Assembly (NCBI GenBank): GCA_934757865.1
Contig: CAKVLS010000001.1
Coordinates: 4,027 to 68,026 of the forward strand
Source of the DNA: an uncultured Clostridia bacterium
Lineage (GTDB): Bacteria > Bacillota > Clostridia > Christensenellales > UBA1242
Reading direction: 5' to 3'
DNA length: 64,000 nt
A program made the position numbers and the translations under genes. Of this stretch, positions 1-42,510 are shown piece after piece (within the stretch, counting starts at the first letter, position 1; each line of letters opens with the position of its first letter). The notes under the pieces were generated by a model, which worked only from the letters and a program-made list of their open reading frames with translations, searched no databases and was not told the origin of the DNA.

Positions 1-1
1 T

Positions 2-3000
2 TCTTATGTAGAAGTTCATGCTCAAATCTCTCCAGTTACAGCAACAGTTTATGGAGATGAAAGTGCAGTAACTTACAACCTAGTTAATAACAACGGCATT
101 CTTACTGAGGCTTCTGGCACAAAGGGTAGATACCAAGCTAAACTTCCAGAAGGCGTTAACGAAGCTACTGTTATGATAGTAGTAACAGTAAAAGAATATG
201 GCTCATCAGTAAGCCTTGTATGTAATGTAACTATCAAGAGAGCAACTCAAATAAAAGAAATCACAATAGATAACCTACCTAAACGTAATGGTGTTTATGT
301 GCTTGATATGAAAGAAGATGCTACTTTCAATCTAGAGATTACTTTATCTCCAGAAAAAGTATTTATCCAAGACTTATTCTTCATGATTTATGATGAAGAA
401 ATGACTCCAATCCATACCGGCACAATCGTTACTGTCAATGGCAAAGCTATTATTTCAAAAGCAGTTTTGCAAGACGCAGACCCTAATAGTGTATTTGTAA
501 GAGTATTTGCAAAAGACAGTATGACCGGAGAAGATTCAGGTTCTGTTTATGAGACAATTTTGGTAACAATCGAGAGAGGAACTCTTGAGAGTCCATACTT
601 AATAAACTCAGCTGATGATTTGCAGGCGATTAAAAATGCCCCAACTAAACACTATATGCTGGCAAGGGATATTGATCTTAACAGCAGAAGTTGGGAACCT
701 ATCGCAAACTTCTCAGGTTCACTAAATGGTTTGTATTACAGAAAAGCCGGCGGAACTGAGATTAAAAATCAATACAAAATAACCAACCTTTCTCTAGAAT
801 CAAGCGATGGAGAATATGTTGGACTATTTGCTAACATTGAGCTTACAGGTCTTGTTATGAACCTAGATGTTAGCGTATCTAGCGTAACAATTTCTAACAA
901 TAGAAACTTAAAAGCAGTAGGTACAATAGCCGCTTATAATAACGGTATCATTGTTAACTCTACCGTTTCAATTGGTAATAACTTTGTTGTAAGTACATCT
1001 GGTAACACCGCTCTTGGTGATGATATCTTCGTTGACATCGGTGGTATGGTAGGTACTAACAATGGTTGGGTATACAACTTTGTTCCTTATATCACAGATG
1101 TATTTGGTAATTACGGCAGAGCATATACAGCTTTTGACCTAAAAGACACAAGTATTCCTGATAAATATATAGAATTTGTTGCTGGTAAAGATTCATTCTT
1201 GTACTTTGCAGAGTTATACGCTGAGGGTGATAACCCAGCACATACAGCTGAGCAAGTAGCTATAATGATAGCTGAGAGCATCAGCGAAACACCAGTTCAT
1301 GGTAGGATCCAAGTTATGGATAGTATGACTTGTCCTATCAATGTTGGTGGTCTTGTTGGTAGAAACTTGCATGTTGTTAATGGTATATTTGGACTATACA
1401 ATGTTCAAGAAGAGATTTCTGGACTAGAGTCTGGAGATGGCGGAGATAACCAATTCTTAATTGATAGCGCAATTTCAGCTACTATCAATGATGCAGGTAG
1501 AGATTTTAGCGGTACAATCTATACAGGTGGTAGAGATCTTAATAAGTCATCATCAACAATAGGTGGTATCGTAGGTCTTAATACTAAAAATGCCGATAAC
1601 GAAGAGGCTAGAGTATACAATGTTGCAACTAGTGGCAGAGTAGAAGGCTATTACAATGTAGGTGGTATAGTTGGTAAATCAACTGGAGGCATCATCAATA
1701 CAATTAGTTCTTGTGCAAGAATTAGTGGTATTAACTATGTAGGTGGTGCAGTAGGTTATGCAGACAACACAACTATTCATCTAGCAAAAGTAGAAAACTA
1801 TCAAGAAACAACAGCCGGCGGAGATATCTTAATCAAAGGTATGATATATGTTGGCGGTATTGTAGGTTATATTGATAACAACTCAACGCTTGAGTTCGCG
1901 TATAGCGTATCATTTGTAGAAGAGAGCACTTTTACAGCTGGTGGTATATCTAACCAAACAGCTGATATATATGGAATTGGCAACTACATAGAAATGTACT
2001 TTGGTGGCGTAGCTGGTTATGTAGGTGTTAATACAGAGCTTGCTTATGTATACTCAACAATGTCAATTTATATGGCTCAAACAACTAACGGAGCTTATGC
2101 CGGTGGTATAGCTGGTTCGCTAGCTTATAGAGGCAAAATCCACGACGCATATTACCTAGGTAAATTTATTCGTGTAAGCGACACATCAACAGGTGTTGTT
2201 GTAGGTAAGATTGATTCTATGGGGCTTGCAACCGTAGAAGGCGTTGAAGGAATAATCAAAAACTTCTTCAGCAACAACTCAAGAAAGAAAGTTGGTGAAG
2301 ATACTGCTGGAGTATTTAATAATGGCGAAACAACAGTTATTAACAATGTAATTCAAGCACAACAACTAGCTCCATTTAAGACAGCTGTTGCAGGTTCTGC
2401 TAACTGGAATACAACCGATACTCTTAACACAAGAAACGGCGTTGCATTCCCAATTATCAAATACACTTCTGAACTAATCAAAAAGGAAGTATTCCTTCTA
2501 AAACAAACTCCAACAGCAGTTACAGCAGCTGTTACAGAGACTCCATCTAGCGATTATAAGAAGCTACAAAGTACAGTTTTACTTCTTACATACTCTGTTA
2601 ACGAGAGTAAGAATGTATATTCTCTAAATAGCCTTCTAAAATTCACATGGTCACCAGCAAGTATTAAGAGTTCTCAATTAAGAGTAACTTCATCTAATAC
2701 TAGCGTGGTATCTGTACAAGAGGGTGGCAAAATCGTTGTTCAAGATGTTTCATCTATGGGCGGTGTAGGCTATGCAACACTTACATTTACATCAGTTTTG
2801 AACCTTAATGCATATTGCACAGTAAATATTGTTGTTGTTCCTAAGGTAACAGATGTTAAATTGTTTAACGACTCTAACTTAACACAAGATATCTTAGAGA
2901 GTTCAAGTTTGAGCATGAAGAAGGGTACAACTCAGAAGTTATTCCCAACATTCTATGACACTGACGAAAATGGCAAACTTGTAAAAGTTAACGCAAACTA

Positions 3001-6000
3001 TGGCGTTCAATATTCTTACAAGACTCCAAACGAGTATTACGATATTGATGCCGCTTCAAACATTATTAGCGCTAAGAAAGAGACTTTGACAGAGGCAGAT
3101 GCAGATTATGCTAGCCAAAAAGAATTCTATGATATCTCATTTACTTCTAAACTAACATTTACTTATTCATTCGGTAATGATATCAAAACATTCAACTACA
3201 ATCCATTTGAGTCTCAAGCTCAATCTGGTAAGAGAACATTCTCAGTAAGCATTTATACAGGTGCTACAGACCTTATTGTTAGCCCAAACTCAGAGATTGA
3301 GGTTTCTGGATACATTCCACAAAGTTTACTAATCAATCTAGTATCTGATGCTAAGATTGATGGTGTAAAAGTAGTTATCACCGATGATAACGGCAACACA
3401 ATTTATAAGAGACACGAAGCTGGTGCAACAATGCTTTATATCAACAATGTTTCATACAATATGGACATTGCTGAAGAGAGAGAAAATGCCCAAAAGATTT
3501 TGGACGAGATAGGATTTGTACTAGATATAGATGTCTTAGAGACAGAATTTTTGATGACCCCAGGTAATTTGGAGAAACTACTTAATATCCAAATTGCTGA
3601 AGGCAAAGAATACATGATTAACCCTGTTGGTTATACATTTGAGTTTAGTGCAGTAACCAATACCGAAGTATCTTGCAGTGTAAGAGTTTTGGCAGTGCCA
3701 CAAGCATTACTTCACCTTGACACAGACTACAGAGTTTTAGAGGGCTCTGAAGTTAGCGGAGAGGGCAAGACTTCTTACATCTTTGACCCAACACCTAAGA
3801 ACAAACTTGTTCCTGGTAAGTTAGGACTTATTAGCATAGATACCAATCCTGTATTTGCTGGCGTTAAATATTTCAAAGTAGAGACAAGTGCTGAGGCTAT
3901 GAAATATGTAAGCTTAGCACAACTATACAAAGACACTTCAGCTGGCGCTTCTGGATTATCATATATCTTTGGAACAAACGCTGAAAAGATTGAAAATGGT
4001 ATTATCCTAAATAGAAAATCAAATTACTTAAAGACAATTTACACTTACAAAAACGGTGTAGAAAGTGATGTTCCTATTGAAGATTCTAACAACTACAACA
4101 ACGAGATAATCAAAGTTGAACAACAATATGATTATGACGGAAATCTTTATGTAGAAATTTTGACAGCAAGCAACATATATGAGATAGAATCATTCCCAAT
4201 ATATGTAACAGCTGTATTCGCAGACGGCAGCGAGCAAAAATACACTAGAGTATTTGAAACAACTTACATTCCTGCACTTTCACTAGAAGCTACAAGAAGA
4301 TATATTGCTTTAGGTAGCAGAGTAAATGAGGACGGCGCAGAGACAAAAGATAGTATTAAGGTAACTCCAATAGTTGATGGCGATTATGACATCTCTATGG
4401 ACATTACAGTACTTAATGCTGCAGGTACTGGCGAAGGCGTTGCAGTACTTACTAACGATGGTACATTGGTACTATCAAATAACGCTCAAATGGGCGATGT
4501 AATAAGAGTTACAGCTTCATACAGCATCACTGTAGAAGGTAGATCAGAATTAGTTTCTACAAGCATTGATATTTTGGTTGTAGAGGCAGTAATTGATGAG
4601 GTAAGTATTGATAAGATAGTTGATAACAAACTATTATTTACAATTTCAAGTTCTCAACAATTACAAGCAACCCTAAAAGGTTGTGCAGATCAAGAGCAAG
4701 GCGTTTTGAGTAGACTAGCTACAACATTGTCTAGACAAATGACTGACTCAAATGCTGTTGCTTATTGGAAATATGTATATAACAATGGCGAAGTAACTAA
4801 CCTTGATAACAAAGCTCTAAGCCTTCCATTTGGCATAGATGTTAAGAAAGTTGCATCAGGAACAGGCGATAACCTAGCTAGTGTATCACTTGTAGGTTCT
4901 ACAGTTTCTGGCAGTGCTAACTTAATGTTAAAGGCTTATATGTACTATACAGATGGCGGCGAACTAAAATTTGCAGAAATGGTTGACGAAACAGCTTATT
5001 TCCCTAGCCTAATAGAAGTTCCATTTGTTGCACAAGTTATGGTAGATTCTACCGATGACTTGCCAACACCTATCTATACAGTAAGCGAACTTATGAATAT
5101 GGTAGAGGGTGGCAATTATATCTTGATGAATGACCTAGATATAACAACTCCACACACTCCAATCACTACTGCAATAGGCAGCTTAGACGGTAACAACAAG
5201 ATTATTACTATTAGCAACTTTGCATACGACACAAGCACAGACGCTATATCTAGCGGAACAATTAACTTAGGACTATTTAGCACAATTAGTGCAGGCACTG
5301 TTATTAAGAATGTAATTATTGCATTACCTAATAATAAGACCAACCCAATGATGCTTAATAGTTATACCAATATCAACTATGGTGGACTAGCAGGTATCAA
5401 CTATGGTATTGTTACTAACTGCGAAGTAATCTCTGTATATGACAAAGATACTTATAATAATGCAAAAGACAATGCTACAGATACAAGCACAGATGAATAT
5501 CTATATCCATACATTAGCTATACCAATAATATCTATACAGCAGTTCAAGTAAATGGCACTGCAGTAACAGCTAATATCGGCGGACTAATTGGTACAAATA
5601 GCGAAACAGGTGTTATCACCAATAGCCGTGTTGGCAGAAACTATGTAGAATATGTAAGTATTCAAGCAGACGACTACAATGGTACTAACCCAGACTTAAA
5701 AGTATACGAGTACACAGCTCCAATAACTATTATGAAGCTAGAAGGTACTGGTAATGTTGGTGGATTCGTAGCGGTTAACGCAGGTATTATTAGTAGTTCA
5801 TATTTCAATAATGGACAATTAGAAATATCTTCTTATGGTTCTAACTATACAAGAACTGGTGGTTTTGTAGCTATCAACAGCGGTGCTGTATATAGCTCAT
5901 ATGCAGCAGGTTGGGAAGAAGAGAGCTATATCAAACTTATAGATGCAACTTCAGACCTATACGAGACATTGCTTGCAACCAACCCAGACGGAAATATTCA

Positions 6001-9000
6001 TTACCAAGTTAAGAGTTCTCAAACTAACCCAAATAGAAAACTTGGCGGCGGTATATTCTCTAATGGTAACATTGGCGGTTTCGTATTTAACAACTCAGGA
6101 TATATCCAAAATTCATATTCAAGCATTAGACTTGACGGCGACTTTACATTTGCAGCCAATAGACAAAATATCTCTAGCAACGCAAATCTAAACGAATACG
6201 GCAACCTAAATGCTGGCGGATTTGTATTCATCAATGATGAAGATTCTCAAATCAAAACTTCTTACACAATCAGTAAGATAAAATCTAATATAAGTACTCA
6301 TGGACCATTTGTTGGTGTATCACCATCATCTGGCGATGTTCAAAACAGCGGCGAAGTAAATAAATGTTATTACCTAGTTGAGAGCGGAGAGAGTATTTAT
6401 AGCAAAGTAGACCCTGCATATGATATTTCTCAAACTAGCGACTCAGAACTTGGCGAAGATGTCGCAAGTATTGGTAACGAGTTTGTTATCAAAGATACAT
6501 TTGCTGGATTTAGCTTTGACAACTCAAACTATGTAGATGGTATGACATCTGGCGCTGTTTGGGCAATGAAGATGGTAACAAGTTCATTTGCTACTGGTTC
6601 TAATGGTCAAGATAGCTATGGCTACCCAGAAATCGTTTCTGCTAACCAAATAGCAATTTCTGTAAGAGTTCTAAAACCTAGCGCAAGCGGTGAGGGACAA
6701 GCAGATTATTCATACATTTATGCTTTGGGATACGAAAAAGGCTCAAGCATTAACCCACAAATTATCACATCTGCTACAGATTACAACAAGGTATTTGAGA
6801 GTATTCTTGGTGTAACTACTAAGGTAGAGAATGTAAATGTTAAGTATACAGGTAACATGAGACTTGTTAACAACCTTGACTTTACAAGTTTGACTCCTAT
6901 GTCAACAAGCTTCGAATATACTTCTCCAGTTAATAGCTTGTCAGTATTTGATGGAAATAACCTTTCTATCTCTAATGTACTAATAAGTGATGACTCAGAA
7001 GAAAATACCGCTTTTGGTCTATTCAAAGTATTTAACGATGTAGGTGTTAAGAATATTACACTTTCTATAAGAGGCGTTGATTCTACTAACGGTATAGCTG
7101 TTGGTGCTTTGGCAGGTCTTGCAGTAGAGAGCGATATTAACAACATCAATGTTGTAGCCGCTATAGAAGGCGCAGAAGTTTCTGGTCAAAACTATGTTGG
7201 TGGTCTTGCCGGAATAGTTGTTTCTGGTGATGATTATACAATGCATTACATTAACAACATCAACTGCAATGTTTCAGTTTTGGCAGGCTATAACGGCGGC
7301 GAAAATACTCAAATTATTAAGCCTGGTGAGATTTGGTCACTAATTTGCCCACCTGCTAAGATTAACAAATACTCAACAGACTACAACCTAAGACTTCAAT
7401 ATTTGAAGAGCAATGTTTCATATGCTGGTGGCGTTGCGGGCGTTATAGACCTTGTTCAAGCCTTCAAGAGCTCTGGTGAGGACGCTTCTACCGATAGCTT
7501 AGACAATATCAACGCAAGAGCAATCAATGTTTCTAAACTTGATATATTCTATAATCCTAGCGATGTAGAAGTTTATGAAGACAATGTAATCAGTATTGAG
7601 GCTGCATATGCTGGCGGTTTATTTGGATTCGTTGGTAATGAAACATTTATAAGAGAGGCATCTTTTGTAGCTTACGAAATGAGCGAGAAGCACTATATCA
7701 TGGCGGATATCGCTGCTGGTGGTATTACTGCTATCAACTATGGTTTTATTGACCAAACTTCTGTAAGCTTCGATAAAGAAACTCAAGCAACTCTAGATAA
7801 TCAATTAGAAAATCTAGTTAAAGGTGCAACAAGTATAACTTGGGGCAACCAAAACCTATACACAGGAGCTCCAATATACCTAGGTGGTATAGCTGGTATC
7901 AATATCGGTGGTGCAGTAAAGAACACTGGTACTATCCAAAACAGCTATAACAGAGTTGATTTGATCAATGATAAAGCAACTCGTATAGGTGGTATAGCAG
8001 GTGCTTCACACATAGGTGCATTTGTTAACGACTACACAACAGCCAATGTAAAAGGCGATTTCAATCAAGAAAATAGTTATTTTGGTGCTGTTATTGGACA
8101 ACTTTTGAACAATGAGAACAATAGATACTATTCTATTTCTCTAAGCAAAGACCAAGAGAACAAGTACAACCTAGAAATAACTAACATCACAACAGCTATT
8201 CTTTGGAATCCAGAATATTATGATGAATATAAGAAATATACCAATGATTATGGTATGAAGTATTATGAGACATATAAGTCTGGCGAACCATATAGAGAAA
8301 CAGACCCAAGATATAATCCTGCTCAACCTACAAAAGAAGCAGAAGATGGACTATATGTACGCAAAGTATCTAGTGATACCGACAATAGGGTAGTATCTAA
8401 GATAGGTAGAATAGGTGCTATCTATGGAGCTCCAACTAAGGCTGACGAAACAAACCTAAGAGCAAGTGAGCTAGAAGGTGAGAGTGGTATAAATAATAAG
8501 AATAATTATTTCAACCCATATCTATGGTATGATCACTATGTTAACAAGTTCTCAGGTTCAAGCACAGTACTTGTAGATAAGATTTACAAGAGCTTTACAG
8601 CAAGTTCAGAAGAATATGTTGACCTATATACTGGAACACAACATCACGATGTAGACAAGATAGCTGCAGGCGTGACAAATGGCGACAAGTATGAAGTTTA
8701 CAAGAATTACAAGGGTAAAGAAGACTATGCTCTAAAAGAACCTGGCAACTTGTACTACTTCCTAAACTATGACGAAAGTCAATATGTTAACAACATCTTG
8801 TCAAAAGACGAATTGTATGACCTATACACTCTAGAAGTTGGTGCTGGTTCTAATGCAAAGGATAAGGCATTCTCTAAGAGCTACTGGTCTTCAAGAATTT
8901 GGAAATTTGACGATTCTGAGAGACTTATTACTCTAAACTTTGGTTATATCCCAAGCATTGCAAGAATTTACACTGCAGAAGATTACATTAGAGAAATTAA

Positions 9001-17416: not shown

Positions 17417-17426
17417 TAATATTTCC

Positions 17427-17459
17427 AAAAAAAGAGAGATTTTTATCTCTCTTTTTTTG
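17427..17459 (+). terminator. rho-independent terminator of giant gene 1
   Basis: Perfect 10-bp stem aaagagagat (17431-17440) / atctctcttt (17445-17454), tttt loop, then a T-tract, 11 nt after the stop codon. Confidence 0.85.
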
Positions 17460-17640
17460 TTGCCTTTATTATTACCTTTTATTATTTAACTTTTTTTGTC
17501 ATTTATATTTAATATTTTTTCTTTGTGATTTTTATTGACTTATTTGCTATTTTTAAGTGGGCATTTTAGGTGAGTGAGAATAAAGTTTTTAAGAGGTTTT
17601 TGCCTATAATTTAACTATAATTTCTATGACTTTTCACCTA

Positions 17641-17826
17641 TTTTTTGAGTGCGTTTTTGGGGTGAAAATTGTTAATTTTTTAGTAAAAATAGGCGGATTA
17701 TTAGAGCATTTTTTGATGTTTTTTATTTGATTTTGGGAGGAGTTTTGCAGGTGTTTTTGGCTTAGTTTTTGTTGATTTTGAGATGGATTTTTGTTGTCTT
17801 TTTGAGAACAAAATTGATAATTTTTG
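17641..17826 (+). repeat. helically phased T-tracts (T4-6 then G, ~11 bp period) in the spacer between the giant genes
   Basis: T-runs start at 17709, 17719, 17731, 17743, 17754, 17766, 17776, 17788, 17799 and 17821, with spacings of 10-12 nt (one of 22). Earlier runs at 17641, 17654 and 17676 are roughly in register. No ORF or SD lies here. Confidence 0.6.
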
Positions 17827-18027
17827 AGAGGGGAAAATGATTATTTTTAACGCAAAATATTATGTAATTCTGGTGCTAAAATAGCTAATTTTTGACCAAT
17901 ATTTTTTGATTTTTATAGCGTTAATTTTGGGTTTTTGTTTATATTTTTTTACTTTATTTTGAGGGTAGATATGCGGACTTAATTTTTTATTATATATAAT
18001 ATATATTATAATATTTAGTATATTTAT

Positions 18028-18057
18028 TTGACTTATAAGGCGTGTTTTTTATATAAT
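18028..18057 (+). promoter_or_regulatory. sigma-70-type promoter of giant gene 2
   Basis: TTGACT (18028-18033), 18 nt, TATAAT (18052-18057), preceded by a TA-rich UP-like tract. AAGGA SD at 18095-18099 lies 9 nt before ATG 18109. Confidence 0.65.
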
Positions 18058-18108
18058 TATAGTTGTAAAATTGTATAGTGCTATTTTGGCAAAAAAGGAC
18101 TTAGTATT

Positions 18109-27100: not shown

Positions 27101-30100
27101 GTGTAGATGACAACGGACAATGCGACTTTACTTATATCAAGACTGCAGATGAGCTTGGTATTGCAGCAAGTGGCACAGTTCCTTATATTAACCTATACTA
27201 TGGCGGCGGATATAGTTATCGCAAGCTTGATAGCGTAATTTATAAATACGCTAATGGCGATGGCGAAGTAATGGGCTCTAAGACTAACCCATACCTAATC
27301 TATGACACAGTTAGCTACAATACTTATTTCAAAGATAAGTTTAATGGTAACACTTCACTTAGCGATGCTAATAGAAGAGAGTATTATAGATTAGTTGCTG
27401 ATATTGATTTTGGTTTCAAACAAATTTCTACTTCTAACCGCATTTTGTTTGGTTATGTTGAAGGAAATGGCATGACTATCAAAAACATCACTTTGACTTA
27501 TGTTTCAGGTGATGAAGAAACTACTGCTTTTGGTCTATTTGCTGAGAGCTTTGATAGTATTGTTAACAACCTAACTCTTAATATCATTGAGATTGCAAGC
27601 TCTGCACATACATATGTAGGCGGACTTGTAGGTAGAGCAAGAACAGATTATACAACTATAGATAGCAAGGCTATGTTTAATGGTTATGAGATTCAAAACT
27701 TTGATGGCGTTCCTAGTTATCTAAAACGTAACTATTTTAACAATATAGTTATTTCAAAAGTTGATGAAAATTCTACAACTCTTACAAACACCGGGCTTGT
27801 TCTTGGTAGAAACTTTGTAGGCGGACTTGTAGGTTTCATGACTGGCAATACAAGAATCAATAACATTGATGTTAATATCAATGTAAACTCTGTATATGTT
27901 CAAGACGCAACAACTGCTGGTAAGTACAATACTTACCAAAGATTAGAAGATGGTGATGATTCTTCAAATATCAAAGCATTATTTGATAACACAGAAGACC
28001 TAAACGGTAAGAATAATGAAGAGGTTAATTACTATCTAAATAGAAGATTGTCTTATGCTGGACTTGTTGTTGGTGTATTAGACACTGACGCTCCAACAAA
28101 CGAAGACAAAGGCAATATTGAAGGCTATAATGCAAATGCACTATTTGTTCATGACAAATTCACAGCTGCTGGATTTGTAATAGGTGGTGTAATTGGACTA
28201 ATAGCTAACGATTATAATATTGTTCAAAACATCAATGTAACTCTTGAAGAAGAGCAATCAATAAGAGGAACATTGTATACAGGTGGTCTAGTAGGTGAGA
28301 ATAGAGGTCAAATAACAACTTCTACAATCGCATACGAGACAGACAAAGAGAACGAAATTGCACCTGTATCTTCAGCTCGTGTTAATACTACATTCTTTAA
28401 CAACAATATGCCAACTGTAGCTATTGGTGGACTTGTAGGATTTAACAATGGCGGAAAGATTTATAGTAGCATTTCACATGTTGATGTTCGTAACCCACTT
28501 GCAACAATAGCTGGTGGTGCTGTTGGTAGAAGTATCAAAGGCGAATACAACAAAGTATTAGTATCTGGCTCTGTAAGAGCAAAATCTATCATGGGCGGAT
28601 TTACTGGAACAGTTAACTCATCTAGCATCTATACTGGCAAGACTGGTATCGGCAGAAAAGAGCAAGCTGATGTATATCCAAATGATGGATCAGATATAGG
28701 CGAAGACAAATGGGTTCCAATAAACTCAACAATCGCTGATGTTTATGTATCATGTATCGCTGCTAACAACTGGCTTCTTGATGATTATCCATATCTAACC
28801 GAGAAGAAGAGTGTTAAGAGAGTAGCCGGTGGATTCATAGGCTCTGAAGCTTTGACTACAGAGTACTTTAGAAACTTAGATAATACTGATATTAAGATAG
28901 CTGCTATCAAGACTGAATTTACTAAGATATATAGTTCAATTACTGGTAGTTTCTATACATATTCTTTGTACTATGGTAGTACCGGAGAGACTGTAGCTCC
29001 TGCATCTTATATGCCAGTAGCTTATATCTCAGCTTTTGATGATGTAAAATTATTTACAAGCAAGTACGACGAGAACGAAGAAAACTATGATATGTATCAA
29101 TACCTATATCCATACCTTGCTGTTAATACACTTAACAGAAGTGATGCAAATACTTTGGTTGGTATGACCCACTATGAGATTGCTTATGGTACAGTGACAG
29201 AATACACTGGAGATAATTTAACTCTAAACAATGAAACTACTCCAACTACAGCAAAATATAAAATAGGTTTGGAAACTGATTTTGATGTTAAGTCTAATCA
29301 ATATATCAATAGAATATCAAAAACTTATGCAAATAAAGCACTTACAGAAAATCGAACAACCAATACTTTGTATTATGAATACACAGGACTAAAAGAAAAT
29401 GCTCGTCAAAATGCTACAACCCTAATCATTGAGCGTGATGATTTAGGCAAAATAACTTCTAAAAAATTAGAAGTTGTAGAGAAATACAACATTTACTCTG
29501 CATTTGCAAGTGACGATGACTTTGATATCAATGCAGATACATTCTACAATAGCTTATCAAGCGAAACTCGTAGTATGTATCCTAAGATTAAGATCAATAC
29601 TGTTGGCTTGTCTTGGAACAACTATGCAGGTACTGAGTTTAGTAAAGATGAAGAAGGCTACTTCTTAATCGAAAGCGCTAAAGACTTAGCAACTCTTGCA
29701 TCGGCTGTTAATGGCAGCAAAACATATACAGAAGAAGGCTCAACTAAGAGTTATAGCACTGCAAAATATAGATTAGTTAGTGACATTGATATCTCTGGTA
29801 AAGAGTGGACTGCAATAGGTGGAAATGGAATTTCATTTGGCGGAGAATTTGATGGTAACTACCATACAATCCGTGGTGTATTGTCTAACAAAATCAGTAC
29901 ATTCATATATTCAGGCATCTTTGGATATGTAAAAGATGCTACAATAAAGAACCTAACTTGTGTAGGCGGTACTGTTACAGGTGATTTTGTTGGCGGCATT
30001 ATTGGATCAGCAGAGAATTCTAAGATTATAGGTTGTACTAACAGCAATACTGTAATAGGTAATTACTCAGCTGGTGGTATCGTTGGACTTAGCTTTGAAT

Positions 30101-33100
30101 CTGTTATAACTAACTGTTATAACAGAGGTAAAATCTCTATCAATGAAAAAGATACTACATATACTGATTCTTATGTTGGTGGTATAGTAGGAAAATCATC
30201 AAAAGATACAATAACTTACTCAGGAGTTTTAGACAACGCAAAAGTAGTAAACTCTGGCGATATTGAAGTAACTAATAATAAGACTTCTTATACTTCTTCT
30301 ATAGAGAAAAAAGGTTCTATCTTTGTAGGTGGATTTGTTGGATATATGAATGGAGGCTCATTCAATGTAAGCTCTAAACAATATATCTACAATGAAGGCA
30401 ATATCACAGTAGATAGCAATGCTCACAAGATGTATATAGGTGGCGCATTTGGTAGAATGATAACTGCAGGATTTGAAACTGCAATATCTACTGATTATGG
30501 CGTAGCTTATATTCGTAACAATGGCAATATCACAGTAGATGATAGCAATGTATTTACAACTTCTAATAGTAGTGATTATTATGTAACTAAACTAGAAGGC
30601 AGAAGTGGCACAGAGAGCGATCTTGCGATAGCTTATGTTGGTATAGGTGGCGTAATCGGTAGCTATTACTTTACATCTGCTGTTAATAAAGAATTTGGCA
30701 GAGTTGGCTTGCTAGCTAACAACGGAGATATATTCTTCGACAACCAAAAATCTTCTAAGTGTATTGGTGGCGTAGGTGGTGTTATTGGTAGTATCGATAG
30801 CATCAAAACTTATATTGATCAAAGCTACAACACTGGTAAAGTAGAAGTTCGTGTTAATGCTGGTAAGACTAATATCAACCTAGGAGTAGGTGGTATATTA
30901 GGATTTGCTCTAGGCGAAAAAGGAATGAGTGCTCTAAATATTAGCAGCATTTCAAACTGTTACAATATGGGTAACATTTCAAGCAACGGAAATGGCGGCG
31001 TTTGGTCTGGTGGTATCTTTGGTTTAGCCGGTACTACTAGCGATGGACAATATGTTCTTGGCGATGGCGGAGAAATTTTGTCTAACGATGCTTCATATAC
31101 ACTTGCAGATTTAACTGTTGTAGATGTAAGTTATTGTTACAATACTGGCAGCATTACTGGTGCAAATGATAACTTGTATGGTAAAGGCGCACTATTAGGT
31201 TATGGCGCAGGAGTAAACTGCGGCGAATCAGGTTCAGCTCACTATAACTATTATCTAGTAGGTTCTGCAGATTATGCATTTGCTACCTTTGCTAAAAATA
31301 TTGATGCTTCAACTGGCGTAGAGACTGAGACTTCTAATTATAGAGTAGATGCTCCTAACAACTATAGCCAAAGAACATCTAATACTCTAAAACTAGATGA
31401 AGAAAATGTAGGTGTAGGATATCTATTAGAGAATGGAGTATGGATTCAAGAAGTAACTACTTGGTACCCAACACTAAAAGCAAACTACGAAGTACTATAT
31501 TGGAATGATAATTATGAGCCACTATCTGTTGAGGGCGAAAGCTTCATAATAGATAGCGCAGAAAAATTAGCATATCTATCTTATGCCGTAAACAAAGGTA
31601 TTTTGAGTACTCAAAATGCAAAATTTGTCCTAAAAGACAATATTGATATGGCTAATAGATACTTTACTCCAATAGGTAATACAGACTTTGCATTTAGAGG
31701 AGAGTTTAATGGTAGCGGATATTCTATCAAGAATATTACTATCAATGCAGGCTCTGCACTTAATATAACTGACAGTGAAAATATTGATAATCAACTAAGC
31801 ATTGGTTCATTGTTTGGATTTATAAATGGTGGTAAGATTAAAAATACTGGTCTTGTATCACCAATAATTAGCGATGTTGATTATGCTAGTGGATTTGCTT
31901 ATAGCATGTCTAATGGCAGCGAAATGCAATATTGCTACTTAGATTCATTTGAGATAACAGACCCTGATGCTGTAAAAGCATTGAAAGGTTCTAATAGTGT
32001 TAAATTGTATAAAGAAGGCAATATTTCAGGTTATAAGATGGTTGCTGGATTTGCTAATATGCTAAACAGCAGCAACATCTCTCGTAGCTATGTAAATGTT
32101 AATATCGGTACAAGAGTTGGCAACTCTGGCAGTTACAAAGGTTATCTTGCTGGTTTTGTTAACGAAGTCACAGACTCTATGATACAAGACTCTTATGTTG
32201 GTCAAGGTATCAACAATGACTCTTTGTATTCATATGAAACAACAGATAACTTAGTAAGCTCAGATATAACATCTTCTTATATGTTTAATAAAACTATTAA
32301 CAAAGAGAATGGAAGATTGATAACAAGTAACGGCTTAATCGTTGGAGGAGACTCAGGCGAAGCATGTACCTCTGTTGTTCATACCTTCAACCTATCTCCT
32401 ACAATTTATGTAAGAGGTTACAATAGTTCTTACGAAAACATCAATAGTTCGACAGCTAGCGTTTCTACAAGTATCTCTAACACAACTAATATCTCTCCAA
32501 CTTCTGACAACCTAGAAAAAGATGGTTGGGATGTAATCAATGTTTGGAGCTATGAATATAGCTTGTTAGGCGATATCAGTGGTAACGATGAGTACCCAGC
32601 AACTATTAGAGGCTTGGGACAAAACTGGTATAACACAGAGTGTGTTGACCTAGATCTAAAGAACGTTGTAGGCGATTCTATCACAAAGAGAGATAGTGTA
32701 GATATTACAGGTAATAGAAGCTTGTTCATTTACTACGAAGTATCTACTCCTGAGCAACTAGCTTGGATTTCGAGAATGGTTAATACCGGTAAACTAAATG
32801 GCAAAGATTCAGCCGGCAATCAATATGTAATCAAACTAATGAATGATATTGATTTGCAGGGTAGAACTTGGACCCCAATAGGTACCTTGGATTATCCATT
32901 TGGTTGCAAATTTGATTTCAATGGTTATGACATAAGCAATTTGATTATGGATACAACTAATATCAACTTTGCAGGATTGTTTGGTTACACCAATGGCGCA
33001 TATATCACTGGTGGATCAATCAGTAACGAATACATCAATATTGAATTTACTGATGAAGATGCTAACAATCAAGCTATTATTAAGAGCTTGTATGTAGGTG

Positions 33101-34455
33101 GTCTAGTTGGTAGAGGACACAATACTCAAATAGCTGATGTTACAGTAGAAGCTAATATGGTAGGCTATTCTAGATATAACTGCTATGTTGGTGGTATAGC
33201 TGGAAGCTTGACTTATGGTAAAGCAAGCGAGAACGAAGGTTTGACAGCTTCTGTAACTAATGTAAAAGTTATTACAAAAGAGTCTCAAGGAACAGAAAGC
33301 TCTGAAGTCTTGATTCCTAAAGAATATCGTTTAGAAAACGGCTTTGGACTTGACGAAGTTCTAACAGGCGCTACACAAGATAATGCTATAGGCGTTAATA
33401 TTGGTGGCTTCTCTAATGCAGGCAATAGCTATGTCGGTGGTATCGTTGGTTATATTGCTGGTAAATATACTAAGACATACCAAACTCAAGCTGTTATCCG
33501 CAAGGCTTTGAATAGAGCAAATGTTGTATCTTATACACATAGCGATATATCTAGAACATATAATGGCGGTATCGCAGGTTATATGACAGAGAACTCACTT
33601 CTAGAAATAACCGAAAACATTGGCAGACTAAAATCTGCAACTTACGGATTTGATTATATCGGTGGTATAGCTGGTATGGTAGACGGCGGTTCTGAGATAA
33701 TCAACTCTGTAAACAAAGGCGAATTAGAGTGTAGCCAATTTGCATCAGTACTATCTTATAGCGGTGGTATCGGTGGATATTTGAGAGGCGGTTCTAATGT
33801 TTCTTATAGTGCCAATGTTGGTACATCTTATAAGAATGTAGATTCTACTAAGATATTCTCAGCAGGAGCATTTGGATATGTAGAAAAAGATGTTACAGGT
33901 ACAATGCCAGTTGTTAAGTATGTAGTATTTAGCGATAATACTGATTGCTACAAGTTTGATGGCGAAAATTCTATCGGCTACTATGGTGATGGAGAACTTA
34001 CTCCAGCCGAAGAAGGTCAATTTACTATACTATGTATTACAAGCATGCAAGATACTACTATTGCAGGTATATTTGATACAAGCATCTGGAACTTAGTAAC
34101 TCAAGATGTTGACTATAACACTAGATACTCTCTAGAGTTTGACGCAACACTTCTAGCAGCTTACTATGTACAAGAAACAGATGGTATTAAATCATACGCT
34201 CCAATAGGCCCTGGTGCTAGCTTACCTGTTGGTACAGAGATTATCCTTGTTATCAAGTCAAACGACGACTTGGCTAATAAGCGTATAGTTATAAAAGTTG
34301 ACGGCGTAGATGTAGCTCGTGAGGCAACACTATGTGCAGTTATCGGTGGAGGAACTATTACTATAGATACTTCTGAAGGCGCAGTTAATAATGCTATTAG
34401 CATTAGATTGCCAGCTAACGGAATGACTGACATCTCTGTTACAACAAAAGCTTAA
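18109..34455 (+). CDS. giant lipoprotein (5,448 aa): N-terminal lipobox, Ig-like domains, six GLUG-like beta-helix modules, small C-terminal beta-rich domain
   Basis: Uninterrupted ORF with SD and promoter. N-terminus MKKFFSILFIFCLGFLGLLAGC is a signal peptide plus L-A-G-C lipobox (Cys22 = nt 18172-18174). It has recurring cap motifs and GG-x-x-G coils. TAA at 34453-34455 is followed by a terminator. Confidence 0.93.
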   Translation: MKKFFSILFIFCLGFLGLLAGCNEDRYGNLTITIATEQERAEDGSITLYVGDEPEDITVTMGGIPSNFNVVPSFSLSENIVKIGEVNHMLDNGVRKTIEGIAPGYTVLTAYTSEGLKSASLKINVIKKAESISANSDYKLAVIRRPGFSTKIDTNEAISILPKDSNQNTIKYTLATEGLTDIISLRDNTITVLEGANLSAEKEFQIKAEVVNHKGEVNEDVEPTYLNVRILDDITEDNIKLYQSQTQNPPVNALNPIENTLILSKNYVENNITYVFIAVKTTETIGVSAPENTNASPVLVSFVQKFTSAGYQFFEYRLQAIRYSQETTLKFGVYVEGYSDAYTFETDIKVECQLYIKNFAVNDVTLADGVKHSITLYTNEQTSGAKLKIAVSNPREILASDARFSVALYNVETGEMVNYDNISNYFSITNIVNNSRLNDGWYMKEVTFNVRLQAGNLDVDDSGKYELVITSERPLMYATKATTSVLINIVEGIKSIDNISYDGEVHDNEPIRLRYEKDAEPLEVTLNATPENATAFETLYATSSNSSIVRVEKVGTYSNKFRIYPVKVGEADVVFGSKNLTSTLIYRVSVYDDIDDFYVSIDEFSQSKYIGKSTVSGYNLTSAVIKVNDASSSSAEIRLNINAIPATAQYYTIKYEVKKVGQTENLASDGTYIYDDYFRLNTRKNTFQFIKHNANDKYLVTVTLENYDGSFTTKQFEVSSYIPITYINMTLTQDVLYNPNNLSYFDLNNAAKSYTKTQATISVNRDATYGYKENIFYEVVVDGAVNENILLRTDNLFELNKDFKIDSYPKKVYITAYALEFGEKRVEVTKQITIHNPVTVEDMAVEGDINGDILYFKLGVDNTKDIKVTVNPSVNLFNGNIKWVQYAEGTTTVLDFADNGSGLMTAVDTENAIFSVEAHGNNRFTISAKKAGNARLILIPEDKIKEVNGSKYIYNWDKAIELFVQVADGSKENPYHVANLQDFRAIQNAMDKYYVLTSNIVAEDNWSPLGLDTLTPLTGGIKGLYSRVIDAAAGTKYTVQYEISNVSYATSMPTGQQYFGLIYQLGSVDALDAELDHIVVNYSYIQAEFNSNLTFGGLVAVNYGNILNSKVTMNNIAVGISGLATDFGGLVGKNYGTIDNSEVDNSVNLNATITIKNGVTPVNIIALNIGGLVGNAVSGTLNGCQKDYTENIARNVSFGDQGYDINVSIKVLAEDTLDVSLKDKIAVGGVCGKITNTNSTKVFVNDFAVTGSITADTANNVGGIVGKISAEKYKDKTEESIGVNLFNCLSNARVTGYINVGGVVGYAINANISYCSAENYRDTQTTRRPFVTGSSYVGGFAGYVGSSNIDHSYFVTYFENAEGFNSDSVSENNSDIIATGDAAFVGGFIASIELSDENIITSAAFIGNIYVQTADKSNTSGFVGWYNGTGQITNIVVRGWGSQGISSTRGTSSAVITGNYYSTFNNPTVVASINEVFDKNGSFTDESIWKTTRTINNNLPYLIDGQGNILFAFLPININVDIIKNGEGLTPDKEDSIRNDGYIALDDPNKVVVLYLNELNSGALTAEQLLALNTYKITSFAHITIDPLTLKTLRLTISSNNNTVVRIENDKLIVLKEGYARITIASKLNADYKAEFIVVVKRGFNDYGLYESSNMTAETIVKDNIDEPVKIIVNKVQALYEKASYDRTVDGNKYSLITSSDVYVKYTLESDDYVDAFIINTNWQRTDGNPYTEVHINNLTSIFAKAVLKKRNAQGQDVNVGPIKVTAVPFVNYTYFGTTYTYVYDYLTYNFYVEIFNGASNISFESNSTNVEITQLQSFIYGVIMDTDTIEDEIKYYVEYNGKIVDLNASTEESMINLTKNAVTNETIFGEDGISVKGKYNKFTVSFENSTEVIKENKVFKIIYYSALVPTIKATMTITVVPQNIVSADIGLYSNKDTYNKNKDGTETFIFNAQVALLTVEIYPDFSKFDRFDITYTSSNGTSLSINQLKYNKNATETDDPFTDYKDSGSQYIIGYGMKVAKASGQEPLLGSDSGIYSYSKIYYFSLLIGSNVPDLTVYTVNLTFFSDNEVVEPRNISYTFRSLSAPTLSLGVKDESLKGLLPLGTKNELNVIASNFTGDIEWKAEIEVGNSSAPIKCADGENCGKCITCLNKNYALLESLIPTQDADGKYYLTIPADNFELIGKRIKITASITKSENNETFNKTESMFVDVTLFTVTGMEVEGLSQDMLKLPIYTPYALKTTLSAVYSEDVKYENYAGNTGNYTIANLIAKLKEQISMADVWNLVLESSTDEEETPSTLQKLVKNSSILYNAAFECISYGDYFALYGSTVDIISTLRAVANITYVDGIPTFVTDGTGTTYSKQFNCAFTYQNDIKNPIPISSQEEFEAMEEGKDYRLVKDILLKDYTPLDTRILSLDGNGYTIYISSFADDLVTTNIGLFSAIQAADSTQEATMIYNVKVYYLQNTVVTETVAEGGNIVESYSVPNIRNHVELNILAHSSYNFGGIAGVNNGIITNCEVNGLIVINIDNDILTESYVGGLAGQNAGYITNSKVYDFSLSAAGNIGGVAGINTKTISSTFTDEIDINNYSTNTQLFYTGGFVCENDDDALILECYTQGRRSERDVTFVNTYNSLVTSGTAGGFAYRNSGKITDCYSNICINASAFSAGFIFLNEDDAVIDKCYSISRVAFNSRAASPFTGIGKSGGVTVSYSGTISNCYFLTDRYNVFSNEPASPLSQREFNSSSSFNGYNFRYNTSDPKEAEGYTWYIAEGRPRLAQTDIATYSRYIYAGKSKNYVANSEVYFKYKEDAHKWYAYNAQTGYDTSKEMVISRRATTIFYEKVKGTDVLRYYFKKALGADGKQLYKEDNGVQYALYEIDDPDLTGNTYFLNSDKTRMLYNGVGVDVVDKAIDITLACYDEIYTEENGNVQVGTDGGEGKSLWKNISTDEICYYINDSKRPYITPNEGSIATDSIRYIDSIDIISVLYKDGDSSSLVDLSVDDNGQCDFTYIKTADELGIAASGTVPYINLYYGGGYSYRKLDSVIYKYANGDGEVMGSKTNPYLIYDTVSYNTYFKDKFNGNTSLSDANRREYYRLVADIDFGFKQISTSNRILFGYVEGNGMTIKNITLTYVSGDEETTAFGLFAESFDSIVNNLTLNIIEIASSAHTYVGGLVGRARTDYTTIDSKAMFNGYEIQNFDGVPSYLKRNYFNNIVISKVDENSTTLTNTGLVLGRNFVGGLVGFMTGNTRINNIDVNINVNSVYVQDATTAGKYNTYQRLEDGDDSSNIKALFDNTEDLNGKNNEEVNYYLNRRLSYAGLVVGVLDTDAPTNEDKGNIEGYNANALFVHDKFTAAGFVIGGVIGLIANDYNIVQNINVTLEEEQSIRGTLYTGGLVGENRGQITTSTIAYETDKENEIAPVSSARVNTTFFNNNMPTVAIGGLVGFNNGGKIYSSISHVDVRNPLATIAGGAVGRSIKGEYNKVLVSGSVRAKSIMGGFTGTVNSSSIYTGKTGIGRKEQADVYPNDGSDIGEDKWVPINSTIADVYVSCIAANNWLLDDYPYLTEKKSVKRVAGGFIGSEALTTEYFRNLDNTDIKIAAIKTEFTKIYSSITGSFYTYSLYYGSTGETVAPASYMPVAYISAFDDVKLFTSKYDENEENYDMYQYLYPYLAVNTLNRSDANTLVGMTHYEIAYGTVTEYTGDNLTLNNETTPTTAKYKIGLETDFDVKSNQYINRISKTYANKALTENRTTNTLYYEYTGLKENARQNATTLIIERDDLGKITSKKLEVVEKYNIYSAFASDDDFDINADTFYNSLSSETRSMYPKIKINTVGLSWNNYAGTEFSKDEEGYFLIESAKDLATLASAVNGSKTYTEEGSTKSYSTAKYRLVSDIDISGKEWTAIGGNGISFGGEFDGNYHTIRGVLSNKISTFIYSGIFGYVKDATIKNLTCVGGTVTGDFVGGIIGSAENSKIIGCTNSNTVIGNYSAGGIVGLSFESVITNCYNRGKISINEKDTTYTDSYVGGIVGKSSKDTITYSGVLDNAKVVNSGDIEVTNNKTSYTSSIEKKGSIFVGGFVGYMNGGSFNVSSKQYIYNEGNITVDSNAHKMYIGGAFGRMITAGFETAISTDYGVAYIRNNGNITVDDSNVFTTSNSSDYYVTKLEGRSGTESDLAIAYVGIGGVIGSYYFTSAVNKEFGRVGLLANNGDIFFDNQKSSKCIGGVGGVIGSIDSIKTYIDQSYNTGKVEVRVNAGKTNINLGVGGILGFALGEKGMSALNISSISNCYNMGNISSNGNGGVWSGGIFGLAGTTSDGQYVLGDGGEILSNDASYTLADLTVVDVSYCYNTGSITGANDNLYGKGALLGYGAGVNCGESGSAHYNYYLVGSADYAFATFAKNIDASTGVETETSNYRVDAPNNYSQRTSNTLKLDEENVGVGYLLENGVWIQEVTTWYPTLKANYEVLYWNDNYEPLSVEGESFIIDSAEKLAYLSYAVNKGILSTQNAKFVLKDNIDMANRYFTPIGNTDFAFRGEFNGSGYSIKNITINAGSALNITDSENIDNQLSIGSLFGFINGGKIKNTGLVSPIISDVDYASGFAYSMSNGSEMQYCYLDSFEITDPDAVKALKGSNSVKLYKEGNISGYKMVAGFANMLNSSNISRSYVNVNIGTRVGNSGSYKGYLAGFVNEVTDSMIQDSYVGQGINNDSLYSYETTDNLVSSDITSSYMFNKTINKENGRLITSNGLIVGGDSGEACTSVVHTFNLSPTIYVRGYNSSYENINSSTASVSTSISNTTNISPTSDNLEKDGWDVINVWSYEYSLLGDISGNDEYPATIRGLGQNWYNTECVDLDLKNVVGDSITKRDSVDITGNRSLFIYYEVSTPEQLAWISRMVNTGKLNGKDSAGNQYVIKLMNDIDLQGRTWTPIGTLDYPFGCKFDFNGYDISNLIMDTTNINFAGLFGYTNGAYITGGSISNEYINIEFTDEDANNQAIIKSLYVGGLVGRGHNTQIADVTVEANMVGYSRYNCYVGGIAGSLTYGKASENEGLTASVTNVKVITKESQGTESSEVLIPKEYRLENGFGLDEVLTGATQDNAIGVNIGGFSNAGNSYVGGIVGYIAGKYTKTYQTQAVIRKALNRANVVSYTHSDISRTYNGGIAGYMTENSLLEITENIGRLKSATYGFDYIGGIAGMVDGGSEIINSVNKGELECSQFASVLSYSGGIGGYLRGGSNVSYSANVGTSYKNVDSTKIFSAGAFGYVEKDVTGTMPVVKYVVFSDNTDCYKFDGENSIGYYGDGELTPAEEGQFTILCITSMQDTTIAGIFDTSIWNLVTQDVDYNTRYSLEFDATLLAAYYVQETDGIKSYAPIGPGASLPVGTEIILVIKSNDDLANKRIVIKVDGVDVAREATLCAVIGGGTITIDTSEGAVNNAISIRLPANGMTDISVTTKA

Positions 34456-34492
34456 CTTTTGATAGCTTATTGTTAAACTAAATGTTTAATAA

Positions 34493-34524
34493 AAAAAGAC
34501 ACAAGAAATTGTGTCTTTTTTTTG
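34493..34524 (+). terminator. rho-independent terminator of giant gene 2
   Basis: Stem aagacacaa (34496-34504) / ttgtgtctt (34509-34517), gaaa loop, T6 tract, flanked upstream by an A-tract. Confidence 0.85.
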
Positions 34525-34943
34525 TTTCAATTTTAATTTCAATTCTTATATTTATTTCTATTTTATAAGTTGCCAATTAAATGCGGTATTATCTTGCTAT
34601 CATCTGTACGGATACATATATAACAGCTATATAAACAATAGCCATCTTTATATAAGATAAATAATATATATTATATAATATTATATATAGTATTTGTTAA
34701 CGGCTGAGAGTTTTTAACTGTTATAAGTATTATAAATTTTTTGACGGCTGAACAAATAGATGCCACTTAGTCTTAATAGAGGAGTGGTAGGGCTATTGAT
34801 ATTTTATGCGTCTTTAATTGGTTTTGCGGCGTGCTATAACAAAATTTGGCAATAAAAAACCGCCTATTTGTGTGGGCGGCTAAAGTATTTTGTAATTTGT
34901 CAAGCAAAATGGGTAAAATTGTCAAAAAAATATGAAAAAATCA

Positions 34944-34972: not shown

Positions 34973-35154
34973 AAAGCTTGCATTATATTGGATAATTGTC
35001 TTTATGGGCATTTTTCTTGAAATTTTACTTGTAAGTAATATTACAATATCATACTTTTGGAGTAGCTGGCAAGTATTTTTAAGATGTTTTATAAAAATTT
35101 TCACAAAGACCACTTATTCAACAAATACAATTTAATATGATTAAAGGAGCCTAT

Positions 35155-38907: not shown

Positions 38908-38921
38908 GGAGAAAAGTTTAG

Positions 38922-42503: not shown

Positions 42504-42510
42504 TAGTATA

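Follow-up and report, generated by a model that had tools for sequence, protein, structure and literature searches.

Directly upstream of the RNA polymerase genes rpoB and rpoC of an uncultured Clostridia bacterium from the human gut lie two consecutive giant genes, which raises the question of what kind of proteins they encode and what these do for the cell. The window analyzed here is a stretch of 64,000 nucleotides (GenBank assembly GCA_934757865.1, contig CAKVLS010000001.1, positions 4,027 to 68,026 of the forward strand). The frame of gene 1 (g1-type, positions 2–17416, + strand) is free of stop codons from nt 2 to the stop at 17414–17416 and comprises the C-terminal 5,804 codons plus stop; its N-terminus lies outside the window. 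As the orthologue on a related contig (L011) was called at 6,555 aa and starts 756 codons before nt 2 of the window, the full gene 1 product is expected to measure ~6,560 aa. Gene 2 (g2-type, 18109–34455, + strand) is a complete open reading frame (ORF) of 5,448 aa, called as such and matched by full-length homologues. Together the two genes occupy 52.8% of the window, and NCBIfam equivalog models identify the following genes as rpoB (35137–38907) and rpoC (38922–42503; span 35137–42503, + strand). The extent of both frames (~53% of the window) and their position directly upstream of rpoBC are thus as described in a first-pass annotation made from the sequence. We consider it reasonably probable that both genes encode membrane-tethered giant surface lipoproteins, acting as a fibrillar adhesin and/or coat; this reading builds on the ORFs, the domain folds, the conservation of the lipobox, purifying selection, synteny and rapid divergence.

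Genes 1 and 2 are functional coding genes under selective maintenance, not artefacts or pseudogenes, as independent assemblies agree and the ratio of nonsynonymous to synonymous divergence (dN/dS) is 0.08–0.14. A blastn comparison of nt 1–35000 with itself gave no match at E ≤ 1e-5; the two genes thus cannot be aligned at the DNA level and lack long repeats prone to assembly collapse, which bears out the initial impression that the pair is neither collapsed nor duplicated in assembly. Through the rpoB of the window we found three contigs from human gut metagenomes of other samples (L001, Hadza; L002, MERR22; L003), which are 99.98–100% identical to the window over 12.9–18.8 kb, and a product of exactly 5,448 aa was independently called on two of them (Hadza and MERR22). 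A close lineage is represented by contigs L011 and L012, which we combine because the M23 peptidase P0167 is identical on the two. Compared with this lineage, gene 1 has a dN/dS of 0.08 (2,284 codons) and gene 2 one of 0.14 (3,016 codons). Full-length orthologues of 5,331–6,555 aa are found in other lineages.

Both proteins share a layout of Ig-like stretches and modules of glycine-spaced coils, as had been proposed from the translations and as now emerges from the motif excess, the family matches and the modelled folds. The coil motif G[GA][LIVFM][LIVAFMT][GA] is strongly enriched, with 67 occurrences in gene 1, where shuffled sequences predict 2.2, and 32 in gene 2, where they predict 1.2; the motifs are most often spaced ~30–40 residues apart. 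Each protein contains six β-helix modules, that open with a cap (PY.I.....L........Y.L..DIDL....W.PIG...F.G.FDGNG..I), continue in GG[IV][IV]G coils and close with W....YP.L; in consensus they show the canonical GLUG cap and, after it, VGGIVG coils. The modules start at about aa 196, 1689, 2250, 2985, 3730, and 4066 in gene 1 (window numbering of the 5,804 codons) and at about aa 972, 2375, 3058, 3850, 4478, and 4873 in gene 2. Most of these starts are backed by a hidden Markov model (HMM) of the cap, with the exception of aa 2250 and 3730 of gene 1, which were read from the translation only.

The repeats had been recognized as GLUG-type, and they exceed the gathering cut-off of Pfam family PF07581 (Glug, 20.5 bits) in both proteins. 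When the proteins were scanned in chunks of ~550–580 aa, gene 2 scored 49.6, 27.0, 28.4, and 30.7 bits (52.8 and 26.7 bits when scanned in halves), and three of the ten ~580-aa chunks of gene 1 scored 23.3, 25.8, and 34.6 bits. Scanned as two halves of ~2,900 aa (2–8701 and 8702–17413), gene 1 gave no PF07581 match at E ≤ 0.01, from which it follows that long, repeat-rich queries can hide families defined by short motifs. For module 4 of gene 2 we found 212 relatives (26–46% identity), nearly all of them Glug-positive, whose partner domains include SLH, dockerin, a type IX secretion system (T9SS) tail, Flg_new, Big_2, prepilin, and Peptidase_M26_N. Judged by these sequence annotations, such partners are all typical of secreted or surface contexts.

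The β-helix fold was modelled for one module, module 4 of gene 2. AlphaFold prediction of residues 3845–4465 with a 50-row alignment yielded a predicted template modelling score (pTM) of 0.84, with a predicted local distance difference test (pLDDT) score of at least 70 for 413 of the 621 residues. The best solved match in Foldseek was BACOVA_03286 of Bacteroides ovatus (3n6z; E 3e-4, template modelling (TM) score 0.57 normalised to the target), followed by IgA1 proteases that contain a β-helix (7jgj, 7uvk, 6xja); tailspikes and polysaccharide lyases gave weak, topology-level scores only. A viral library returned right-handed β-helix proteins for this fold, including a phage "putative IgA1 protease". 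The β-helix solenoid anticipated for such chunks was therefore recovered by structure prediction, and, on family match and model, the modules are GLUG family members with a predicted right-handed β-helix fold.

The spacers between the modules gave no match to Pfam or NCBIfam in either protein, so that the Ig-like stretches named in the first-pass annotation are borne out at the level of fold (by the model of gene 2 residues 1500–2375) and not at the level of family. This region, modelled by AlphaFold with family sequences, reached a pLDDT of 73 and is almost wholly β-strand. Foldseek matched it at probability 1.0 to strings of Ig-like domains, namely those of NUP210, protocadherins, titin I65–I70, SbsC, Sap, and PrgB. 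A HMMER scan of the same residues against 1.84 billion representative proteins gave only eight matches, five of which are collinear giants: P0151 (5,491 aa, 53% identity), P0152 (5,331 aa), P0153 (5,503 aa), P0154 (5,490 aa), and the fragment P0155. Windowed phmmer searches of the non-GLUG regions against both proteins detected no internal sequence repeats and a single stretch paralogous between genes 1 and 2, which indicates that the Ig-like domains are too diverged to be counted by sequence.

In gene 1, module 1 (587–2491, aa 196–830, + strand) is defined by a cap HMM match at aa 196–297 and GG[IV][IV]G coils. It is followed by a spacer (2492–5065, aa 831–1688, + strand) paralogous to the Ig-like string of gene 2 (phmmer, gene 1 aa 869–966 against gene 2 aa 1571–1663; aligning within A3), for which the model of the gene 2 string suggests an Ig-like fold by analogy. 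Modules 2–5 with the inserts between them (5066–12001, + strand) are Glug-positive above threshold in chunks 4 and 6, contain cap HMM matches at aa 1681 (E 4.5e-4) and aa 2999 (E 0.065), and give collinear blastp matches to modules 2 and 3 of gene 2. Module 6 (12197–17413, aa 4066–5804, + strand) starts with a cap HMM match at aa 4062–4180 and consists of an unbroken run of coils over ~1,740 aa to the C-terminus, with 35 GG[IV][IV]G-type motifs between aa 4246 and 5730 and a Glug score of 34.6 bits in chunk 9.

The membrane-proximal region of gene 2 (18175–21018, aa 23–970, + strand) has no Pfam or NCBIfam match and a mean family identity of 0.39; by analogy with aa 1501–2374 it is probably a string of β-sandwich domains. 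Module 1 (21019–22608, aa 971–1500, + strand) carries the strongest chunk match to Glug (49.6 bits, E = 3e-13) and a cap HMM match at aa 972–1079, and is followed by the Ig-like domain string seen in the AlphaFold model and Foldseek search (22609–25230, aa 1501–2374, + strand). Within this string lies a cluster of cysteines, CADGENCGKCITC (window 24520–24558, aa 2138–2150), which could be a small metal- or disulfide-stabilised insert; P0151 has a larger version of it, and it is absent from P0152–P0154. Further along (25231–29655, + strand; Glug 27.0 bits) come module 2 (aa 2375–2780), insert A (aa 2781–3057), module 3 (aa 3058–3560), and insert B (aa 3561–3849). The distal modules 4, 5, and 6 (aa 3850–4465, 4466–4860, and 4861–5340; 29656–34128, + strand) have canonical caps and Glug scores of 28.4 and 30.7 bits. 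The protein ends in a C-terminal domain of ~108 aa (34129–34452, + strand), that matches no family and is the least conserved part across the family (0.21).

Alignment of the two proteins by blastp yields four ordered segments of 24–33% identity, at an offset of ~770 residues. Combined with the absence of DNA similarity, this identifies genes 1 and 2, as far as sequence comparison goes, as collinear old paralogues, the relationship already assigned to them by eye.

Gene 2 starts with a predicted lipoprotein signal peptide (18109–18174, + strand), in which MKKFFSILFIFCLGFLGLLAG precedes the cysteine of the lipobox L-A-G-C (Cys22). The N-terminus, MKKFFSILFIFCLGFLGLLAGC, is shared in kind by P0151–P0155 and by the g1-type genes of L004, L005, and L011, and residues G21 and C22 are invariant in a seven-sequence alignment (A4) of g1- and g2-type N-termini. 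All nine N-termini (gene 2, P0151–P0155, and the g1-type genes of L004, L005, and L011) fit the lipoprotein pattern, for which we used a PROSITE-PS51257-like pattern (K/R in the n-region, a hydrophobic core, and a lipobox with Cys at ~15–35). For the g1 type the signal is seen in these three orthologues, as the start of gene 1 lies outside the window. Bacterial lipoproteins are processed by Lgt and then by Lsp. The mature protein would accordingly be tethered through its lipidated N-terminal cysteine at the outer face of the cytoplasmic membrane, with the C-terminal modules distal.

Other anchors and activities were sought in both proteins. Neither contains an LP.[TSA][GAN] motif or a C-terminal hydrophobic segment; the windows of highest hydrophobicity fall in the signal peptide only, and there is no further hydrophobic segment. 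Pfam gave no match to SLH (PF00395) at E ≤ 1, and Pfam and NCBIfam gave none to Peptidase_M26_C (PF07580), Peptidase_M26_N (PF05342), or glycoside hydrolase (GH) and polysaccharide lyase (PL) families at the same threshold. The HExxH motif is absent from both proteins, toxin, pre-toxin and immunity families were not found in the Pfam and NCBIfam scans, and NCBIfam returned no match at all for either protein. A sequence search of the PDB with 4,999 aa of each protein gave no match. The features tested here set the two proteins apart from M26 proteases, LPXTG adhesins, SLH proteins, and CdiA-like toxins. The earlier reading had likewise listed HEXXH, a toxin-like end, LPXTG, and SLH as missing, and motif and family scans agree; it was right that there is no LPXTG or SLH anchor, but it overlooked an anchor of another kind, the conserved lipoprotein signal MKKFFSILFIFCLGFLGLLAG-C22.

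Taken together, these features suggest the following model. The protein would be exported through Sec, after which the invariant cysteine would be lipidated and the signal peptide cleaved, leaving the N-terminus in the outer leaflet of the cytoplasmic membrane. From there the chain would run outward as a semi-rigid fibre, consisting of a string of Ig-like β-sandwich domains and then six right-handed GLUG β-helix modules with Ig-like or variable spacers. The distal modules would be located at or beyond the surface of the cell wall, where the flat faces of their β-helices may be offered for binding, so that they would serve in non-enzymatic binding, as an adhesin, and/or make up a fibrillar coat. 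One coil of a β-helix rises ~0.48 nm and one Ig-like domain spans ~3.5–4 nm. With 67 or more coils, gene 1 alone would account for 30 nm or more of helix, and either protein, fully extended, may measure 100 nm or more; as the Ig-like domains could not be counted, this length is an order-of-magnitude expectation.

Relatives of both genes show that the family and its location are maintained while the sequences change quickly. The g2-type proteins P0151–P0154 align with gene 2 over their full length at 32–53% identity. Across this family modules 2 and 3 are best kept (identity 0.48 and 0.43), and inserts A and B (0.24 and 0.25) and the C-terminal domain (0.21) are among the least conserved parts. 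A giant ORF upstream of rpoB in related genomes, for which the first-pass annotation had proposed to look, is indeed present: a g2-type gene directly precedes rpoB in three lineages, represented by the window, by L012 (5,464 aa), and by L006–L008 (5,752–5,760 aa), and the order of a giant gene followed by rpoB and rpoC is the same in L001–L003, L006–L009, and L012. The giant of L006 is 48% identical to gene 2, and its rpoB is 93% identical to that of the window. In the closest lineage, L011 has 85% nucleotide identity to window positions 1–6856 (gene 1) and L012 has 99.6% amino acid identity in rpoB. The full-length g1-type orthologue of L005 is 54% identical to and collinear with gene 1 residues 1–3853, and aligns in register with gene 2 at 23–29%. 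The relatives found in GTDB genomes belong to metagenome-assembled genomes named "Clostridia bacterium". At ≥90% identity, the EF-Tu of the window falls in a cluster whose representative comes from a "Christensenellaceae bacterium" metagenome-assembled genome, which points, weakly, to a probable place of the lineage in Christensenellales. Scans of metagenome contigs with the N-terminal family alignment and with a fragment of the L006 giant gave no match, nor did a homology search with the N-terminal 1,000 aa of gene 2; as the latter did not recover the protein itself either, and the matches that the same tool listed for later queries were all of ≤1,084 aa, its index appears to omit very long proteins and this negative says little.

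Upstream of the g1-type gene, relatives carry spoIIID, mfd, and pth, together with genes for an ACP-like protein and for the envelope-related M23 peptidase, polysaccharide deacetylase, LPG-synthase-like membrane protein, and PrsA-like lipoprotein, with spoIIID and the ACP-like gene immediately upstream of the giant in L011. The proposal that the giant genes are inserted between rplL and rpoB therefore does not hold: in close relatives they are preceded by spoIIID, with cell-wall genes before it, and rplL is not among the neighbours. Envelope-related genes are located just upstream of the g1-type giant at positions 10001–11291 of L011 and 4634–6917 of L005. It is a matter of speculation whether the PrsA-like foldase encoded nearby is relevant to the folding of a giant exported protein.

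Between the window and the L011/L012 lineage, synonymous divergence (dS) is 0.75 for gene 1 and 1.07 for gene 2, compared to 0.12 for rpoB, 0.10 for rpoC, 0.10 for the 5′ part of tuf, 0.07 for fusA, 0.03 for rpsG, and 0.39 for orf185, a gene located downstream of rpoC. The dS of the giant genes is 6–9 times that of the adjacent rpoBC, a contrast to which the strong codon bias of rpoBC, fusA, and rpsG may contribute; judged by the non-ribosomal orf185, the giant genes may exceed a neutral baseline by no more than ~2–3-fold. The rise begins within the spacer between gene 2 and rpoB, of which only the 244 bp proximal to rpoB can be aligned (95% identity). The contrast could stem from exchange of alleles at the giant locus, from suppression of dS by codon bias in the translation genes, or from both. 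Within gene 2, aa 3623–4830 are the most divergent between the close lineages (64–71% identity, dN/dS 0.16–0.24), several other stretches have a dN/dS of 0.05–0.09, and aa 4833–5432 are 85–90% identical to L012. The rapid divergence of distal gene 2 is as expected for the most exposed part of the protein; the pattern in aa 3623–4830 fits fastest change at the exposed end, and allele exchange may contribute.

Several points weigh against reading these proteins as membrane-tethered surface fibres with a binding or coating role. We infer lipidation from a sequence pattern alone, and surface exposure, a length of ~100 nm or more and a binding function are predictions as well. There is no demonstrated ligand for a GLUG helix, and in the pneumococcal IgA1 protease the helix gates the catalytic site and is not an adhesin (PMC7695701). 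Inserts A and B (~570 residues), the C-terminal domain, and the first 970 residues of gene 2 could hide an activity. Finally, the tandem pair is established in the window and, as we infer, probably present in the L012 lineage, and upstream of a distant g2-type fragment (L010) lies another gene, which means that the tandem arrangement is not universal.

Among the alternatives, the one that survives best, though we think it unlikely, is that the proteins protect the cell as a coat instead of serving in adhesion, with a dense fibrillar layer of many copies that stands in for an S-layer or capsule against phage, host enzymes, and IgA, without a specific ligand. The very large size and modular, rigid design would suit such a layer, the Ig-like string matches S-layer proteins at the fold level (SbsC, Sap, and EA1 among others), and location and architecture are conserved across the clade. 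Consistent with a ligand-free coat, no recognized binding domain (lectin or carbohydrate-binding module) appeared in the Pfam and NCBIfam scans, and rapidly diverging distal modules would be in keeping with evasion of phage or antibody as well. However, there is no SLH or other wall-binding module, self-assembly has no support, and a single gene copy with an ordinary promoter says nothing on abundance. The roles of adhesin and coat are, moreover, not mutually exclusive.

An enzymatic or enzyme-associated function of the modules, resembling tailspikes or pectate lyases or gating a substrate as in M26 IgA1 proteases, with a catalytic partner that is undetected or encoded elsewhere, appears improbable. 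The Foldseek matches of module 4 include tailspikes, the K1 capsule lyase, GH28, GH87, and PL6 enzymes, and phage depolymerases, but these are weak (E 0.03–1, probability 0.02–0.54, TM 0.1–0.25) and reflect shared solenoid topology only. IgA1 proteases are among the closest solved folds and Peptidase_M26_N occurs in some relatives of the modules; yet catalysis in IgA1 protease does not reside in the helix (PMC7695701). Such a function could still be located outside the modelled parts, in inserts A and B or the C-terminal domain; against it stand the missing HExxH, the lack of any M26, GH or PL family at E ≤ 1, and the empty PDB search. A protease as such was rejected for want of HExxH and M26 domains.

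It is very improbable that the proteins are filaments for contact-dependent delivery of effectors, similar to CdiA or polymorphic toxins, with a toxin at the C-terminus. Giant β-helical filaments are typical of CdiA/FHA-type systems, and the C-terminal ~108 aa of gene 2 are its least conserved part, but the scans contained no toxin, pre-toxin or immunity family, and gene 2 is followed by a terminator and then rpoB, without a small immunity gene. In addition, the last ~600 residues of gene 2 are 85–90% identical between close lineages, compared to 64–71% for the mid-distal modules, which is the opposite of the polymorphic-toxin pattern, and an N-terminal lipid anchor would hold the protein on the producer cell. 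A polymorphic toxin was therefore discarded on the conservation pattern (gene 2 compared) and the missing immunity gene. Misassembly or pseudogene decay as an explanation of the giant ORFs is hardly credible: although the sequence comes from a metagenome assembly and genes rich in repeats collapse easily, collapse was ruled out by the empty blastn comparison and the agreement of three other assemblies from different samples, and decay is at odds with full-length orthologues and low dN/dS over thousands of codons.

A membrane-tethered surface fibre, the reading that we prefer, has parallels among described proteins. The GLUG surface proteins, of which BACOVA_03286 of B. ovatus (3n6z) is an example, have the same repeat, with the cap ..DIDL...W.PIG..F.G.FDGNG..I, VGGIVG coils and the closing W....YP.L. 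The listed relatives of module 4, however, measure 373–1,084 residues and typically have one to three modules where phmmer resolved them, which may be due to the search index itself. Their attachment is through SLH, dockerin, T9SS or other means, whereas genes 1 and 2 have a lipoprotein signal, six modules each, Ig-like strings between them, and lengths of 5,448 to ~6,560 residues; the single coil run of ~1,740 aa in module 6 of gene 1 also sets it apart. M26 IgA1 proteases of Streptococcus pneumoniae and Gemella haemolysans (7jgj, 6xja, 7uvk) have an N-terminal β-helix similar to the modules, but unlike them genes 1 and 2 lack HExxH, the M26 catalytic and M26_N domains, G5, and LPXTG. In IgA1 protease a single helix gates the catalytic site (PMC7695701), and in genes 1 and 2 no catalytic partner is present.

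By analogy, the functionally nearest described system would be that of Apilactobacillus kunkeei, which has tandem genes for giant surface proteins of 3,000–8,000 aa, Giant1–5 (PMC12863079; PMC4494060). Shared features are consecutive genes for giant extracellular proteins in a small Bacillota genome, a β-solenoid with long rod-like regions, rapid divergence, and an inferred role in adhesion. The A. kunkeei proteins have one N-terminal SRRP-like solenoid, rods of α-helical repeats, and a C-terminal SH3b-like domain, and appear loosely attached, in contrast to the six GLUG helices, Ig-like spacers, and predicted N-terminal lipid anchor of genes 1 and 2; no sequence relationship between the two was found. 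Clostridia proteins of 10,000–30,000 aa have been reported from mammalian gut metagenomes, and share class, habitat and inferred adhesion role with genes 1 and 2 (10.1101/2023.11.21.568195). These carry RCC1, the Listeria-Bacteroides repeat, the YG repeat, dockerin, and leucine-rich repeats (LRR), and neither GLUG nor a lipoprotein anchor is among the features given in the accessible part of that source. In view of the tandem giants of A. kunkeei (PMC12863079) and of the giant Clostridia proteins (10.1101/2023.11.21.568195), the term "extraordinary" that the first-pass annotation had applied to the locus is an overstatement: giant surface proteins of β-solenoids and Ig-like domains, including tandem arrays, are already known in Bacillota, and genes 1 and 2 do not form a new category. 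In the open-access literature we found no description of this giant family, and GLUG itself is rarely mentioned there. What is new is the narrow family, with only about five clusters at 50% identity among 1.84 billion representatives, the six-module design, the predicted N-terminal lipid anchoring at such size, and the conserved place next to rpoBC.

Each giant gene has its own predicted terminator, and gene 2 a predicted promoter, at coordinates within 1–2 nt of those assigned earlier. An intrinsic terminator-like hairpin follows gene 1 (17426–17459, + strand; 15-pair stem, then a T-run) and another follows gene 2 (34491–34522, + strand; 14-pair stem, then a T-run). The σ70-type promoter-like site of gene 2, TTGACT-18-TATAAT (18028–18057, + strand), matches 11 of 12 consensus positions and is assigned by consensus match only. 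The spacer between the genes is ~650 bp long; its positions 17460–17960 are 51% T on the + strand with 13 copies of TTTTTG, and 17460–18027 contains no ORF longer than 68 aa on either strand. A strong local skew is seen at 16001–18000 (GC skew +0.34, AT skew −0.125). The two spacers flanking gene 2 have in common a 17-nt alternating-AT palindrome (17993–18009 and 34661–34677), which is of low complexity and may be due to chance.

Downstream of rpoC are genes for an L7Ae-like protein, rpsL, rpsG, fusA, and tuf. The interval between rpoC and rpsG (42504–45346) is unusually AT-rich, with 28.5% GC in 42001–44000. It contains orf185 (43776–44333, 185 aa), which is conserved (94% identical in L012, with a 187-aa counterpart in L006), has no Pfam or NCBIfam match, and is followed by the L7Ae-like gene and rpsL; in the L006 lineage, rpoC is followed by an additional DUF6273 gene. 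The region 49519–61061 is ordinary housekeeping, with genes for an AI-2E/YtvI-like transporter, an acyltransferase_3 protein (minus strand), a GT4 glycosyltransferase, a methyltransferase, and a PHP-domain protein, and with uvrC, murB, and whiA.

It is conceivable, though we put it forward tentatively, that these proteins represent an undescribed, clade-restricted class of lipid-anchored giant fibrils, which certain uncultured, Christensenellales-like bacteria of the gut would carry as their outermost layer. Given the raised dS of the giant genes relative to rpoBC, strains may exchange or diversify the distal GLUG modules, leading to strain-specific interaction with host mucus or IgA, with phages, or with partner microbes. 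If genes 1 and 2 do encode membrane-tethered fibres, ~36 kb of a small gut-bacterial genome would be spent on two such fibres, which would largely determine how this uncultured lineage of human-associated Clostridia meets its host, phages, and neighbours. The locus would then provide a compact test case for what GLUG β-helices bind, for the export and lipid anchoring of a protein of ~6,500 residues in a Bacillota cell, and for the diversification of giant surface genes beside the most conserved genes of the chromosome.

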